A stretch of 64,000 nucleotides of DNA, taken from positions 69,452 through 133,451 of the forward strand of contig CAZIZK010000002.1 in assembly GCA_964544225.1 (NCBI GenBank). The letters are read 5' to 3'. The notes under the pieces are model-generated. The model searched no databases. It was given only the letters and a program-made list of their open reading frames with translations, and was not told the origin of the DNA. A program made the translations under genes and the position numbers. Positions 46,943 to 52,644 of the stretch are shown here, piece after piece. The first letter of the stretch is position 1, and every line of letters starts with the position of its first letter. This stretch comes from an uncultured Candidatus Saccharibacteria bacterium (GTDB lineage: Bacteria > Patescibacteriota > Minisyncoccia > Phycocordibacterales > UBA9973).

Positions 46943-47815
46943 ATGCTATATTATTTTTATATGCAATTACAATACTTTACATATTTTTTAAACCCTCTGA
47001 GTACTCCGAGCTTATTTCCTGAAACGAGACCTAAAAAGGAAATATTCAGACAAGTCTTACAGCAGAAAAACTTAAAATATAAGGCTTCTGGATCAGATTT
47101 AGCCTACGTTTTTGAAAAAGAAGATGGAGATTATATAGTTGCTAAATTAGGCAAAAAGCAATCTCTTAAGAGAAGCCTTCCTCCAGAAGAAAGGTTTGAA
47201 GAAACTATTGATGAAAATTGGCCACATTGTTTAGTTTTTTTTAATTTAGATGAAAATCCTAATACAGGTCAAAAAATTGCATTTGAATATAAAACAAATA
47301 TTTTTAAAACACCCTTTGTCCAACTGCAAGATCTTGCTGAGGAACTAAATATTGCACTTTTTAATTCTAATTATGCTGTGTCAATTCATCCAGTAACAGA
47401 AGAGAGAAAGTTTTGGGATATTGTTAAAGAAAACCAAGGTAAGATTGAAAAAGTAACTTTTTCTTTTAATGCACCAAATCTTTTTAATCTAAAAAATAAT
47501 TTAAATGACGATTTAAGAAATGCTCAGGAGAAATTTGGACTAACAAAGGCAACCGTTGAATTCGAAAATCCACAAGGGAAACTCACTCTTTCAGAAGATA
47601 ATGATTTTTTACAACAAGGCGTAGAGTATGTTCGTAAGGGAGGAGGAGACTTTCATCTTAAAATAAAAAATAGTAAAAGCAGAATAATCAGAAGTGAGGA
47701 TGGTGTGATGACTAAAACAGTTGATTATGAAGATATTGAGGCAAGAATAAAATTTGATAATCCTAATGTTATCAACAGTGCAATTAAAAATATTTTTGAT
47801 AAAATAAAAGAATGA
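46943..47815 (+). CDS. Hypothetical protein (AT-rich island)
   Basis: 290 aa ORF with no recognisable motif. Overlaps the next gene by ATGA. Confidence 0.4.
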   Translation: MLYYFYMQLQYFTYFLNPLSTPSLFPETRPKKEIFRQVLQQKNLKYKASGSDLAYVFEKEDGDYIVAKLGKKQSLKRSLPPEERFEETIDENWPHCLVFFNLDENPNTGQKIAFEYKTNIFKTPFVQLQDLAEELNIALFNSNYAVSIHPVTEERKFWDIVKENQGKIEKVTFSFNAPNLFNLKNNLNDDLRNAQEKFGLTKATVEFENPQGKLTLSEDNDFLQQGVEYVRKGGGDFHLKIKNSKSRIIRSEDGVMTKTVDYEDIEARIKFDNPNVINSAIKNIFDKIKE

Positions 47816-48264
47816 GATTTCTTGGATTTTTATTTTTAACAATTCTAATTTCTGCTGGTATTATTACTGTAGATATTCTTCTTCCTGGAAATTTTTTAAT
47901 TAACTTTATCAATAATCATTACATTGAAACCTTTGCTTCTTTAATTGGTTTCAATCTTGCGTCAGTAACATTTTTACTCGGACAACTTATTACCATTGAA
48001 GCAACAATAAATCAAGAGTCTATGTTCGAATCAACAAGAAAAGAAATAAAGCACAATGCATTCTTTTTAATTTTTATTTTTGTTGTAGCTTTACTCCTTT
48101 TAACTTTTAGACCTGATATAGGTATAACTGGAAGATTTGACCTAAATATTGCTTATTATGTGGTTAATACTTTAGTAATTTCTATATTTTTAATGGCCTT
48201 GTTTGCTATTTTTGAAATATTGAATTCTGTATTTTCTATAGGTAAATTTTTTAAGAAAAAATAA
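47812..48264 (+). CDS. Hypothetical 4-TM membrane protein (AT-rich island)
   Basis: 150 aa with 4 hydrophobic helices. Translationally coupled to the 46943 gene. Confidence 0.4.
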   Translation: MRFLGFLFLTILISAGIITVDILLPGNFLINFINNHYIETFASLIGFNLASVTFLLGQLITIEATINQESMFESTRKEIKHNAFFLIFIFVVALLLLTFRPDIGITGRFDLNIAYYVVNTLVISIFLMALFAIFEILNSVFSIGKFFKKK

Positions 48265-48372
48265 TTTTTGATATAACAACAAGAATTAAAATTGTAAAAT
48301 TAATTAATCTCAAGTTGTTTTTTACCTATCTTAATAGGTCATTTATATCAATCGGTTCATGTGATTATTTTA

Positions 48373-49122
48373 CTATTTTTGAAATATAAATAAATGCTCG
48401 TGCATTATTAATAAGAAATTTGAATCTTTTGATTTTTGAACCCAAAATCCTGTAGCCTTGCAATTAAATTGCCTCTTAATAATGTCTTCTTTTAATTCAA
48501 AACCAGAATCTAAAAACTTTTGCATTACTTTGTATGCCAATGGCTGATACATTTTATTACGCCTTGTGTCCCCCATTAGAATTGCACAGAATTTACCTGG
48601 TCTTAATACTCGATATAATTCTTTTGCGGTCTTTTCAATTTCATAACAAAACTTGTCTATATCATGAATATTTGAAATATCGTCCTCTATTGTTCCATCG
48701 CTATATTTAATTATGTCTGCATATGGTGGATGAGTAAGAGCAAAATCTATCTCTTTATCTTTAATAAAGCTTAAATTTCTGGCATCACCCTTCACCACTC
48801 TTTGTTTAGATTTATTATCAACAATGAAATCTAAAGCTTTTATAGTTCTTTCAATAGCTACTTCATTAACATCTACACAAGTAATATGCCTATTTAAAAT
48901 TTTTGCTTCTATTGCTGTCGTGCCACCACCAATCATGCAATCTAGCAAATGGTCGCCCTCTTTTGAGTATCTTAAAATTAAATTCCGTACAACCTCTGGT
49001 GCCCAATTACCTCGCCAATCTGAAGTATGTGTAGCCCAGTTACCACGACGAGGAAAAGCCCAGACCGTAGTACACTCCATTTCAAAACTTTCAGGATGAA
49101 GTTTTAAATTTTTTTGAGACAT
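48373..49122 (-). CDS. DNA methyltransferase (N4-cytosine/N6-adenine, PF01555-like)
   Basis: Motif I LDCMIGGGTTAIEA and motif IV THPPYAD. The PF01555-like FP..L region precedes motif I. Confidence 0.7.
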   Translation of the reverse strand: MSQKNLKLHPESFEMECTTVWAFPRRGNWATHTSDWRGNWAPEVVRNLILRYSKEGDHLLDCMIGGGTTAIEAKILNRHITCVDVNEVAIERTIKALDFIVDNKSKQRVVKGDARNLSFIKDKEIDFALTHPPYADIIKYSDGTIEDDISNIHDIDKFCYEIEKTAKELYRVLRPGKFCAILMGDTRRNKMYQPLAYKVMQKFLDSGFELKEDIIKRQFNCKATGFWVQKSKDSNFLLIMHEHLFIFQK

Positions 49123-49130
49123 TGTTTTTT

Positions 49131-49751
49131 TTACTTTTTATTCCAACAATTTTTAGGAAAACCTATTTTCTTTAAAATATCTGTAAACGCAACATATTCA
49201 ATATGTTGTTCTTTGTAAAAAGCCAAGCTTTCTTTGAGTTCGATTGTTTGATTATTTTTATCTAAGAGATCTCCAAAAGCGAACTTTTCTCTAGCTTCAT
49301 ATTCTTGATAGCCAACTAAAATTATTTGTAGTGGTTTGTGATAAAGCCTTGGAACTTCTCCATATTTCAAAGGTACACCAAGAATTTTTTCGCCCGCAGT
49401 ACCTGGAGTAGACCAGCTTCTACCTTTTACTTCATAAACATAATCGTCACATTCTAAATCTGGATCATATTTTTTAGTTCTTAATGAGCTTTTTTTAGTG
49501 GTGGTAGACCTAACATTTTTTCTACCGAGCTTAATAAGTGCCTCCATTACTAATTCTTGGCAAAGTACAGTTGTCCATTGTTTTCCGCCAATGGTATTAA
49601 TAACCTTATTGCCCCAATCTTGCTCAATTTTCTTTGATTCTTTAAGCCTTTTCTCGCTTTCAGTATTACGCAAAGAAATATCAGTGATACCTTCATAGCA
49701 CCATTGAATAACTTTTGGATTATTAAGCAAATTTAAATTTTCTTTTTTCAT
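49131..49751 (-). CDS. Putative restriction endonuclease (PD-(D/E)xK-like)
   Basis: ECDDYVYEVKG resembles a (D/E)xK catalytic motif. Gene is immediately upstream of, and co-oriented with, the methyltransferase. Confidence 0.4.
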   Translation of the reverse strand: MKKENLNLLNNPKVIQWCYEGITDISLRNTESEKRLKESKKIEQDWGNKVINTIGGKQWTTVLCQELVMEALIKLGRKNVRSTTTKKSSLRTKKYDPDLECDDYVYEVKGRSWSTPGTAGEKILGVPLKYGEVPRLYHKPLQIILVGYQEYEAREKFAFGDLLDKNNQTIELKESLAFYKEQHIEYVAFTDILKKIGFPKNCWNKK

Positions 49752-49771
49752 AAATATTTTTTGATGTGAAA

Positions 49772-50860
49772 TTAGAATGGAATATCTAAAGGATCAATTT
49801 CTTCATTTTGAGTGTTAGGATCAGGTACATAATAAAATGTGTCTTTATTAATTTTATATGTTTCAATATATTTCTTTTTTATAGCTTCCCAATCTTCACT
49901 AGAAATATATCTGTCCTTTAAAGATGTTAGTAATAATTCAATTAAAGAAATATTATAATTACAAATTAATTTATAAAAATACTCATTAGATACTTTTATT
50001 CTGTCCTTTTCCGAATGTCGAACATCAAATATGCTGTTATTGAGTGTTTGGCATGTTTTTGCCATATCACTAATTATTACCATAAATTCCGCCTCCCTTT
50101 TTTCTTTTTCATCTGTGTTAACAACAATTAAGCTTACTAGGTCTTTTTTCAATCCATCTATAACATTCTTCTTTGATTCAGTTTCATCGCTAAAAATTAA
50201 TCCTAAAATCTCTGCAGATATTTTGGATGCATTTATGTAGTCATCTTCATCAAAGAAACTATAGTAAGAATTTATTTTTTCTGATAATTTAACATCTTTC
50301 AACTGAGATGCAATATTTCTCAAATCCTCTCCTTCGTTTTTAGTAATTAAGTCTTCTTTTATATAGTAATTAATTTTTTCTTCCTTAAAGATATTGTTAA
50401 TTCTATTAATGACATCTTTTCTTTGATTTGCTTTAGAAAAAAGAATAGTTGCTTCTAGTAAATCAAAAAGTATGAAATCATCGTAAACATCTTCCATAAT
50501 TTGTTTTTCATCATTACTAACAACTGATTCACCTTTAAATTTAAATGGGTAGTAATCAAAACTATCAGAAAATCTATACCCAAGTTCTGATTCAGAAAAA
50601 TCATCTATAAGTTTTTTGTTAAAGTAGTGGGCCTTGTCTTTTCTATTTTCAATTAGAATATATTTCTCTAAAAAAAGATCTGAGCTTGAAATAAATTTCA
50701 ATAGGGAAACTAATCTAATTCTTGTTTGAGAATTAATAATTTCATTCCTTTTCTGCCTATTTAAGTAACCTATTCTGGAATCTCTATTATTAACCGTGCT
50801 AGACCTATAAAAATTAGACGCAAATCCATCTCTTTTGTTTCTTTTTGAGAAAAGTTTCAT
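49772..50860 (-). CDS. Hypothetical protein within the restriction-modification island
   Basis: 362 aa, helical and charged. No recognisable motif. Tightly packed between the Dam-like methyltransferase and the putative nuclease. Confidence 0.4.
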   Translation of the reverse strand: MKLFSKRNKRDGFASNFYRSSTVNNRDSRIGYLNRQKRNEIINSQTRIRLVSLLKFISSSDLFLEKYILIENRKDKAHYFNKKLIDDFSESELGYRFSDSFDYYPFKFKGESVVSNDEKQIMEDVYDDFILFDLLEATILFSKANQRKDVINRINNIFKEEKINYYIKEDLITKNEGEDLRNIASQLKDVKLSEKINSYYSFFDEDDYINASKISAEILGLIFSDETESKKNVIDGLKKDLVSLIVVNTDEKEKREAEFMVIISDMAKTCQTLNNSIFDVRHSEKDRIKVSNEYFYKLICNYNISLIELLLTSLKDRYISSEDWEAIKKKYIETYKINKDTFYYVPDPNTQNEEIDPLDIPF

Positions 50861-50861
50861 A

Positions 50862-51830
50862 TTAATAATTAGTTACTAATACCTCTGTAATTTTTCCGCG
50901 ACCTGTGCCTTTTGAGTTTATCGATCTGCCAGCTTCGATTTTATTGATTTTCACCTTCTTGTCTTTTAATTCAGAATAGATCTTATTTATAAAAGGTGTA
51001 TCTGAATTTGAAAGCATAACAAAACAACCTCTGTTATGGAGCTGATAAAATACATCCCTGAGTTCTATCTGTTCTTTATCAAGGAAAGAATCGGCAGTAT
51101 AAGCAGTAAATGAAGAAGTTTTGTTGATTGGGTAATATGGTGGGTCAAAGTATATAAAGTCCCCTTTTTTAGCTTTCTTTAACACATTTTTATAATCTCC
51201 ATGATTAATTGTCACTTTTTGTAAAGAAGCTGAGACTTTTTTAAGATTCACCTCATCACAGATAAGAGCATTTTTATTTAATCCAAAAGGGGTATTAAAT
51301 CCACCTTGTTTATTAACACGATACAGGCCATTGAAACATGTCCTGTTTAAATAAATAAACCTTGAAGCTATCTCTACCTCTGATAAATCTTTAATATTTT
51401 TTGCACGAATTTTTAGAAAATAATCTTTATTGTTTTTATGTTTTTTAAGAGTTCCAATCAATTCATCCACATTATTTTTTATAACATTATAGGTAACTAC
51501 TAGTTCATTATTTAAATCAGAAAGTATTGCTTTTTTAGGAAGTAGGTCAAAGAAAACAGCACCACCCCCTACAAATGGTTCAAAATATGTGTTCTTTAAT
51601 GCATCAAAACCTTCAGGAGGATAGAAACCTAAATCACGAAATTGTTTTAATAATTGTCTTTTGCCACCTACCCATTTTACAAAAGGTTTTGCTTTTTCAT
51701 TAATTATTTTTTTAATTTCTTCAGGAACAAACTTACCTTTTGTGTGGTGTAAAATATGTTGAGCAAAAATTGAATTTATATCAAAATCCTTTTGAATTTT
51801 TTTAGATATTTCGTGTGTTGTCATGCTCAT
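50862..51830 (-). CDS. Dam-family DNA N6-adenine methyltransferase (D12 class)
   Basis: PFVKWVGGKRQLL N-terminal motif and IYFDPPYY catalytic motif. Start taken at MSMTTHE (ORF caller used a TTG at 51863). Confidence 0.85.
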   Translation of the reverse strand: MSMTTHEISKKIQKDFDINSIFAQHILHHTKGKFVPEEIKKIINEKAKPFVKWVGGKRQLLKQFRDLGFYPPEGFDALKNTYFEPFVGGGAVFFDLLPKKAILSDLNNELVVTYNVIKNNVDELIGTLKKHKNNKDYFLKIRAKNIKDLSEVEIASRFIYLNRTCFNGLYRVNKQGGFNTPFGLNKNALICDEVNLKKVSASLQKVTINHGDYKNVLKKAKKGDFIYFDPPYYPINKTSSFTAYTADSFLDKEQIELRDVFYQLHNRGCFVMLSNSDTPFINKIYSELKDKKVKINKIEAGRSINSKGTGRGKITEVLVTNY

Positions 51831-51859
51831 ATATTTTAGCACAAAATATTGATTTTTAG

Positions 51860-52033
51860 TCAATTTAATTCCTTTAGCAAATCCTCATAATCAAGCGGCT
51901 CAGTGACCATTTCGACGAGGCCGTCGTTGGAGACTTTCCGTTCATTCTTTGGCCTGTCTACGTATATCTCTACCCCATTGTTGTCGGGGTCGCGTAGGTA
52001 GATGGCCTCGGACACGCCGTAAGGCAGTAATAT
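51860..52033 (-). pseudogene. Fragment of a VOC-family (glyoxalase/ring-cleaving dioxygenase) gene, C-terminal 57 codons only
   Basis: Minus-strand frame reads ILLPYGVSEAIYLRDPDNNGVEIYVDRPKNERKVSNDGLVEMVTEPLDYEDLLKELN*, with an in-frame stop immediately upstream and no start codon. Typical VOC beta-alpha-beta-beta-beta C-terminus. Confidence 0.55.
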
Positions 52034-52128: not shown

Positions 52129-52169
52129 CCCTTTAAGGTTTTGTCCTTAAGGGGCCTTTTCTTTTTTAT
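52129..52169 (+). terminator. Intrinsic terminator (ccctttaagg-ttttgt-ccttaagggg + ccttttctttttt)
   Basis: 10 bp stem with one G-U pair and a long U-run. Overlaps the stop of the convergent NYN gene. Confidence 0.6.
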
Positions 52170-52644
52170 ACGCCAATTTATTCTGTAAGTCATTCATAAA
52201 TCTTAGATAGGGCTTTACATAATGCATCTTTAAAAGTGCTGAAAACCTGAGTTTGTTTGGTATTAAAACAGCCTGAAGCTTTTCTTTTTCTATAAAGTAG
52301 TTTATTAGGCAATGAAAATCTCCATCACCACTGACAATAATAGCTTTATCGAAATTCATGTATTCTATCATTGATTGTAAAACAAGCTCGGCATCACAAT
52401 TACCCTTGGTGGTTCCATCTTTATGTTTTAGTGTGGGTTTAAAAATACAGATAAATCCAGCTTCTTGTAAAGATGTATATAAAAGATTATTCCCTTCTAT
52501 ATAACCAATAAATAAAAAGGCTTTTGTAACCCCATATTTTTCAGTTAAGTATACACGGAATCTTTTGAAGTCTAACTTCCAACCAAGCCCTTGAATCCCA
52601 AGGTTTAAATTTTGACTATCTATAAAAGCATAGTTGTTGCTCAT
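52147..52644 (-). CDS. NYN-domain (LabA-like PIN) protein
   Basis: YAFIDSQNL..KGNCDAELV..IVSGDGDF conserved NYN acidic residues. Confidence 0.75.
   Translation of the reverse strand: MSNNYAFIDSQNLNLGIQGLGWKLDFKRFRVYLTEKYGVTKAFLFIGYIEGNNLLYTSLQEAGFICIFKPTLKHKDGTTKGNCDAELVLQSMIEYMNFDKAIIVSGDGDFHCLINYFIEKEKLQAVLIPNKLRFSALLKMHYVKPYLRFMNDLQNKLAYKKEKAP

Follow-up and report, generated by a model that had tools for sequence, protein, structure and literature searches.

What is an unannotated gene doing in the middle of a restriction-modification (R-M) cassette? The question is raised by a stretch of 64,000 nucleotides, here called the window, from an uncultured Candidatus Saccharibacteria bacterium (contig CAZIZK010000002.1, positions 69,452 to 133,451). 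On the minus strand of the window a gene for a 362-aa protein, with its ATG start at 50860 and its stop at 49772 (49772..50860 including the stop codon), is wedged between the genes for a Dam-family methyltransferase and a small nuclease. The original prediction for this gene, made from the letters of the DNA, offered three candidate roles for its product: the true restriction endonuclease (REase) of the Dam-like system, a specificity or control subunit of that system, or an abortive-infection-type toxin. The analysis described here shows that the gene is optional, exchangeable cargo in a slot of a widespread three-gene type II cassette. Its product is probably a self-contained abortive-infection-type defence protein that belongs to a diverged branch of the AbiJ-NTD4 proteins. 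Such genes are of interest in this group of bacteria, the Patescibacteria or Candidate Phyla Radiation (CPR), whose genomes are tiny and which cannot be cultured by themselves. To our knowledge, their resistance to phages is poorly understood.

The gene is genuine and not a chance reading frame. A collection of 5.8 billion proteins contains 27 clusters of homologues (348-364 aa, 37-100% identity to the window protein), and their alignment has 40 invariant columns. Its annotation as an AbiJ-NTD4/HEPN-like protein is based on the listing of open reading frames (ORFs), these 27 full-length clusters and a profile link to the proteins of PF18863. The first gene of the cassette lies immediately upstream and encodes a Dam-family (D12 class) N6-adenine DNA methyltransferase (50862..51824, minus strand; PF02086, E = 2.6e-61; TIGR00571, E = 2.6e-84). 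This gene was listed as 50862-51863 with a TTG start, an extension that results from a gene fragment abutting it (described at the end). The likely true start is the ATG at 51824, as indicated by the 320-aa gene called in the Logan copy of the same contig (L107) and by the limits of blastn matches. Homology of Dam to other cassettes begins at this ATG. Downstream of the 362-aa gene, the putative nuclease of the original prediction turns out to be a type II REase of the PD-(D/E)xK class (206 aa; 49131..49751, minus strand). It matches PADLOC REase_II (PDLC03457, E = 2.3e-28), has 455 homologue clusters and carries the invariant motif P97-D98...E107-V-K109. The last gene of the cassette encodes an N6_N4-class DNA methyltransferase (249 aa; 48373..49122, minus strand; PF01555, E = 4.7e-20; PADLOC MTase_II PDLC03376, E = 7.2e-90).

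The four genes have the same orientation and are separated by spacers of 1 nt (Dam and the 362-aa gene), 20 nt (the 362-aa gene and REase) and 8 nt (REase and methylase), and there are no terminator-like sites on the minus strand within the cassette. The tight packing noticed at first sight is therefore real, and the reading of the gene as probably co-transcribed with both methyltransferases and the nuclease is right in structural terms. The G+C content is 26.1% for the 362-aa gene, 29.4% for the cassette and 38.7% for the window.

One clue to the role of the gene is how often the cassette does without it. The REase family is far more common than the family of the 362-aa protein, with at least 455 clusters (75-94% identity, all from CPR lineages) as opposed to 83, and the usual gene order around it is Dam, GmrSD, REase and N6_N4 methylase. 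In a census of the position between Dam and REase, 80 of 399 metagenomic loci were classified, and 38 of these had both genes on the contig. Nothing separates Dam from REase in 19 of the 38, apart from a gap of 5-81 nt. The other 19 hold different genes: GmrSD in 14, an AIPR gene (PF10592, E = 1e-30 to 6e-44) in four and a DndB-like gene with a small ORF in one. The family of the 362-aa protein occupies the slot in none. Across these loci Dam, REase and the methylase are 55-94% identical to the window proteins, whereas GmrSD proteins from different cassettes share only 22-46% identity.

The edges of the slot are sharp. DNA homology between the window and either L020 (GmrSD-type) or L046 (AIPR-type) ends at 50857-50862 and resumes at 49752-49761, so that the breakpoints coincide with the ends of the 362-aa ORF. 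The slot itself can be placed at 49762-50856 in the window, 3261-4994 in L020, 3409-5004 in L046 and 3512-4999 in L058. The junction between Dam and REase is thus a slot for gene-for-gene swaps in a widespread CPR cassette. It was also considered whether the window retains a remnant of GmrSD, but tblastn found none and the idea was rejected. The same four genes occur together in only one other genome (L005/L006/L013), with proteins that are 75-90% identical. The cassette of that genome aligns without interruption over 51825-48367 (continuous 77.6% DNA identity to L005), and its flanks are different. The four-gene block thus moves as a unit, and the alignment sets the limits of the mobile cassette at 48367..51825 on the minus strand. 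A search for the REase among plasmids gave no match.

The cassette has a second variable slot, at the junction of REase and the N6_N4 methylase (L088 1845-4647, L090 2309-4378, L080 3822-4412, L028 1418-2014 and L030 3669-4139, with further cases in L054, L064, L033, L059 and L095). Its contents include a superfamily 2 helicase with a ParB-like protein, an AIPR protein of 689 aa, a protein of 196 aa that carries an RNRAIH (HEPN-like) motif and unknown proteins of 145-198 aa. Pairs of ORFs of ~70 and ~95 aa recur there and might encode controller proteins.

Can the protein still be part of the restriction enzyme? The position directly after Dam with a 1-nt spacer is what might be expected of an REase, specificity subunit or control subunit of the Dam-like methyltransferase, and so is the presence of two methyltransferases in the cassette. 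DpnII/MboI-type cassettes consist of two methyltransferases and one endonuclease. The core of the present cassette is similar, with a Dam-class methylase, a small REase and an N6_N4-class methylase. However, the gene order is different, the REase has no match to PF04556 (DpnII) and the 362-aa gene lies outside the core. Furthermore, half of the cassettes in the census have Dam abutting the 206-aa REase with no gene of this kind at all, and in the other half the place is taken by GmrSD, AIPR or DndB-like genes. The protein itself has no match, by sequence or by fold, to REase families including DpnII, MboI and Sau3AI, or to helix-turn-helix (HTH) proteins. Most members of its family have no Dam neighbour, which does not fit obligate dependence on a cognate methyltransferase, and a copy that is 79% identical sits in an HsdM/HsdS operon. 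Both the REase and the subunit were therefore rejected as candidates, and we consider it highly improbable that the protein has any such role. This corrects the idea that the gene encodes part of a restriction enzyme.

Where else is the family found? The 79%-identical copy (P0002) lies between HsdM and HsdS in a type I operon. In a second type I locus (L019, 38% identical) the order is HsdM, Bro-N, the homologue, HsdS, an unknown gene and HsdR. Another homologue is ~2 kb from a type ISP enzyme. Further neighbours belong among conflict genes: Fic, an ADP-ribosyltransferase with a GIY-YIG gene, a cluster of HTH, DUF2726 and SMODS genes, and an SLFN-type helicase. In about 8 of 13 contexts the homologue has no R-M gene beside it. 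The flanks differ in nearly every genome, and so a fixed chromosomal position of the family was rejected. Conservation of the R-M context had been chosen beforehand as the test on which the original prediction might fall, and the result does not overturn it: the context does recur, although with different types of R-M system, and most homologues stand alone. Bro-N and RhuM-family genes also turn up with the R-M operons of this family or of relatives of the REase (L019 7120-7968; the P0002 contig; L024 774-1808). These are the same toxin-like companions that have been noted in HEPN-R-M neighborhoods (PMC3710099).

Proteins with AbiJ-type HEPN domains are often embedded in R-M operons (PMC3710099), and the known HEPN genes in such operons offer a comparison. 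These include PrrC of EcoprrI, RloC and members of at least 16 HEPN clades (PMC3710099). Like them, the gene described here is a toxin-like gene within an operon, where it would presumably provide a second line of defence, and its family occurs in operons of type I as well as type II. Could it be a latent toxin and stand guard over the R-M system, as PrrC does? In this scenario the restriction or modification enzyme would hold it in check, and it would be freed when a phage anti-restriction protein disables the enzyme. PrrC works in this way from within a type Ic operon (PMC3710099). The 1-20 nt spacing suggests co-expression, and three independent R-M embeddings are known: type II in the window and L005, type I on the P0002 contig and type I in L019. 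However, the same gene has moved between unrelated R-M types (Dam/REase and HsdM/HsdS) while remaining 79-80% identical, which makes a conserved physical partner unlikely and argues against a dedicated partnership. The contexts without adjacent R-M genes do not fit either, and no ABC-ATPase regulatory domain like that of PrrC was detected in a Pfam search. A guard of this kind is therefore unlikely. Near-identical copies in type I and type II operons instead suggest that the protein probably acts alone and not via one restriction enzyme, and PrrC-style dependence is less likely than autonomous action.

If the protein acts alone, what is it? Direct family searches against Pfam, NCBIfam, PADLOC and PHROGs gave no match, with no family in PADLOC-DB v2 at E values up to 1. 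Sequence searches of the PDB with the single protein and with three profiles gave matches at chance level only. The remark that it has no placeable motif was thus accurate. Its family is small and restricted. A family profile retrieved only 83 clusters from 1.84 billion representatives, and the family is present in 7 of 185,579 species-representative genomes, six labelled as Patescibacteria lineages and one labelled just 'bacterium'. All taxon-labelled members of the 27 clusters are from Patescibacteria (Nomurabacteria, Kaiserbacteria and Paceibacterota). There are no relatives in IMG/VR viral contigs or GenBank phages, and hence no sign of phage origin.

The link to known proteins emerged from the edge of the family. 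Among the 1.84e9 sequences, the weakest match of the family profile was P0108 (E = 9.2e-4), a genuine AbiJ_NTD4 protein (Pfam E = 7.4e-23) whose own family comprises more than 6000 clusters of proteins of ~280 aa. Comparison of 44 family members with 37 canonical AbiJ-NTD4 proteins by hhalign gave a probability of 83% (E = 8.9e-6) over 142 columns. In this alignment FDLIE of the family registers with YDFIE of the canonical proteins, N.IF.EE with CN.VLE.E, DYxNxxKxS with DYRNSIKES, and IRH with IRH. With a looser setting it covers the whole length of the proteins, M..FS[KQ]R of the N-terminus included. Reciprocal searches with hidden Markov models placed 12 of the 44 and 15 of the 37 real sequences above every one of ~2000 composition-matched shuffled decoys. 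In addition, three family members have sub-threshold matches to PF18863 (the best with E = 2.1e-4, and another E = 3.1e-3 at 18.4 bits), and one has a match of this kind to Abi_C. The reciprocal profile matches and the decoy controls indicate that the homology to true AbiJ-NTD4 members is remote but reproducible over the domain. The most likely interpretation of these comparisons is that the family is a strongly diverged AbiJ-NTD4 branch restricted to Patescibacteria.

The predicted architecture is consistent with this. The AlphaFold2 model, built from the family alignment, has a predicted local distance difference test score (pLDDT) of 77 and a predicted template modeling score (pTM) of 0.66. 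The protein begins with an invariant peptide, MKLFSKRN (residues 1-8; 50837..50860, minus strand), which was recognized from the invariant columns of an alignment of the 27 close homologues and aligns to M..FSQRxG of the canonical proteins. Residues 9-27 form a variable basic linker, and the whole of residues 1-27 is modelled with low confidence (pLDDT 40-52). Next comes an alpha+beta domain (residues 28-185; 50306..50779, minus strand) that is AbiJ-NTD4-like and predicted to be sensory or regulatory. It is followed by an all-helical, putatively HEPN-like domain (residues 190-335; 49856..50293, minus strand), which is the predicted effector. The initial description of the protein as highly charged and helical agrees with a composition of 33% K/R/D/E and with a mostly helical model, with the qualification that the N-terminal half is predicted to be alpha+beta.

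The candidate catalytic residues are Arg281 and His282, within LNNSIFDVRHSEK (50015..50020, minus strand). They are invariant in the close alignment and also in a broad alignment, which was too divergent for scanning loci, so that the close one was used for that purpose. The close alignment conserves N-N-x-I-x-D-x-R-H-S-E-K around the pair, and other conserved motifs in it are SELGY, DDxxLFDLxE, ILFS, EE, LIT..GE and AKIS. Arg281-His282 aligns with the invariant R244-H245 of canonical AbiJ-NTD4 proteins, which have the same I-R-H arrangement.

The two groups can therefore be compared along their length. In both, an M..FS.R peptide is followed by an alpha+beta domain and then a helical domain, the motifs [FY]D.IE, N..[FL].E, DY.N..K.S and I-R-H are collinear, and the Arg-His pair is invariant. 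Both are encoded by single genes with a patchy distribution. However, the present family has ~360 aa instead of ~280 aa, its C-terminal region is longer, and its N-terminal peptide is followed by an additional basic linker of 20-35 residues. It also falls below the Pfam threshold and is confined to Patescibacteria. Canonical proteins join AbiJ-NTD4 to an AbiJ-type HEPN domain (Anantharaman et al., 2013; PMC3710099), and the N-terminal domains of AbiJ proteins have been proposed to sense or regulate (PMC3710099). The resemblance extends to lactococcal AbiJ (Abi-859) and to the Abi_C protein SadR (PF14355), which likewise place a predicted HEPN-type effector in an abortive-infection protein made of one polypeptide. 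SadR is an RNase and requires its motif for defence (PMC13590631). Among the candidate roles proposed at the outset, it is thus the abortive-infection-type toxin that is favoured, as a prediction, by the remote, reciprocal profile homology and by structural matches that look HEPN-like.

Several observations weigh against this assignment. The window protein does not match PF18863 (gathering score 34 bits) or PF14355 even at E values up to 10, PADLOC does not recognize it, and the hhalign probability of 83% is below 95%. The HEPN endoRNase motif, R-polar-x3-6-H (PMC13590631; PMC3710099), is absent: the protein reads L-N-N-S-I-F-D-V-R-H. The position of the canonical Arg is N or S, N275 and H282 are conserved, and R281 adjoins the His. 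As a consequence, RNase activity is not assured. For lactococcal AbiJ itself no mechanism is known (PMC13064643), and several homologues adjoin housekeeping genes (CTP synthase, a Trp/Tyr-type class I tRNA synthetase of the tRNA-synt_1b family and an M48 peptidase). Because the tests against PF18863, PF14355 and the R-x-H motif failed, the protein is better named AbiJ-NTD4-like than called a member.

How serious is the missing Arg? The canonical Abi_C motif is R-N-x5-H and is essential in SadR (PMC13590631). The counterpart here is [N/S]-N-x5-R-H, in which the polar residue and the His are kept and the first Arg is absent. The present family also differs from Abi_C in the class of its N-terminal domain, and the window protein has no match to PF14355 (1 of 27 family members has one, E = 0.052). 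Canonical AbiJ-NTD4 proteins are weak on this model too, with 2 of 37 matching (best E = 0.014). A Foldseek search of the model against the PDB retrieved CorA and G-protein-coupled receptor helices at a best E value of 0.5, which is meaningless. In view of the conserved residues, RNase activity is plausible without being assured.

How might such a protein work? It would be transcribed together with the cassette and would form a second layer of defence against phages that escape restriction. The N-terminal NTD4-like domain, possibly together with the C-terminal tail, would hold the HEPN-like domain inactive until a phage component lifts the block. Once released, the latter domain, which is probably an RNase acting through H282 and R281, would cleave RNA, and growth of the infected cell would stop.

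The tail deserves attention of its own. The last residues, 349-362 (49775..49816, minus strand), form an acidic and disordered extension, ...NTQNEEIDPLDIPF, with pLDDT values of 41-51. The protein ends in NEEIDPLDIPF. A PF terminus is found in 71 of 76 full-length representatives of the family (61 IPF, seven LPF), and positions -10 to -4 contain 3.4 acidic residues on average. No other ORF class ends in [ILVMP]PF among the 1503 ORFs (80 aa or longer) of the window and loci L001-L106. Such an acidic, disordered tail with [DE]-[IL]-P-F at the free C-terminus resembles the C-terminal tip of SSB (the protein that binds single-stranded DNA), which reads DDDIPF, FDDEIPF or DLDDEIPF. The difference is that the tail is carried by a defence-type protein and not by an oligonucleotide-binding (OB)-fold protein that binds single-stranded DNA, and that Pro is often at -5. 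There are no SSB genes in the window or the examined loci.

The D-I-P-F tail also separates the family from canonical AbiJ-NTD4 proteins, as it is present in nearly all family members but in only 4 of 120 canonical, non-CPR proteins (P0110, P0112, P0116 and P0125). In these four, an extension of three DDFAPPP repeats ends in LDVG[DE][IL]PF. P0112, the only one with a taxon label, is from a metagenome-assembled genome of Anaerolineaceae. To judge by its sequence, the extension looks like an SSB disordered linker plus acidic tip that was gained independently of the CPR family.

Perhaps, then, the protein is not a toxin at all. It could be helical but non-catalytic, with a D-I-P-F tail that connects it to the SSB network, for instance as an accessory of repair or replication or as a regulator, and could hitch-hike in variable regions. 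The SSB tip recruits genome-maintenance proteins (PMC7913777), not every HEPN domain is catalytic (PMC3710099), the Arg of the canonical HEPN motif is absent here and some of the homologues adjoin housekeeping genes. However, the Arg-His pair does not vary in the wider family, where identity falls to ~20%, and Asn275 and Glu284 are invariant in the close set, which suggests an active site. The patchy, island-like distribution and the low G+C content (26%) are also difficult to reconcile with a maintenance role, and the genes that share the slot in other cassettes are all defence genes. A non-toxin of this kind is thus rather improbable, and an abortive-infection-type protein remains the better explanation.

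For such a protein, the tail could have a different use. The SSB tip is a docking peptide for RecO and for phage annealing proteins of the RecT type (PMC7913777; PMC13490951), and phage mutants that escape lactococcal AbiJ map to single-strand annealing proteins (PMC13064643). Together with the likeness of the tail to the tip, this makes a bait function an attractive hypothesis. By this analogy the tail would be a decoy of the SSB tip, detecting phage proteins with an affinity for SSB tails (single-strand annealing proteins, for instance) and so unlocking the HEPN-like domain of a protein carried in the swap slot. The combination is tentative, and we think it possible but doubtful. A link between SSB tails and abortive infection was not found in the literature searched, which is not proof of novelty. 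If the decoy idea is true, it would represent a new trigger principle, in which mimicry of the tail of a host protein serves as bait, and with the slot it would amount to a new kind of docking site for defence genes in Patescibacteria.

What is gained from all this? HEPN genes within R-M operons are already a known theme (PMC3710099). What goes beyond it is the lineage-restricted divergence, a swap slot whose limits within a widespread CPR cassette can be drawn precisely, and the SSB-tip-like tail. A whole unannotated protein family can be assigned, with the qualifications given above, to the AbiJ-NTD4 group. The slots of the CPR cassette exchange GmrSD, AIPR, DndB-like and AbiJ-like genes, and can be mined for new defence genes. 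The tail provides a testable clue to how AbiJ-type proteins might sense infection.

Some features of the flanks complete the description. The fragment that abuts Dam (51866-52025, minus strand) is the C-terminal part of a glyoxalase/VOC-type protein, ...GVSEAIYLRDPDNNGVEIYVDRPKNERKVSNDGLVEMVTEPLDYEDLLKEL, which is preceded by stop codons and has no start codon. It probably marks a gene that was truncated when the cassette arrived. On the other side, at 46943-48264 on the plus strand and convergent to the cassette, are two overlapping unknown ORFs of 290 and 150 aa within the same stretch of low G+C content (28%), and the pair is kept in the Logan copy of the contig. Read by eye, the 150-aa ORF appears to have about four hydrophobic, probably membrane-spanning segments. 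Database searches with the pair gave no match save a hint to a SLATT model (E = 0.58), and it may represent a further two-gene defence unit. Close to the upstream end of the cassette, and followed by a small rhodanese gene, is a gene for a 165-aa NYN-domain (LabA-like) protein (52147-52644, minus strand; PF01936, E = 4.3e-11; PADLOC NYN, E = 1e-08). It encodes a predicted RNase and may belong to the same variable region as the cassette.

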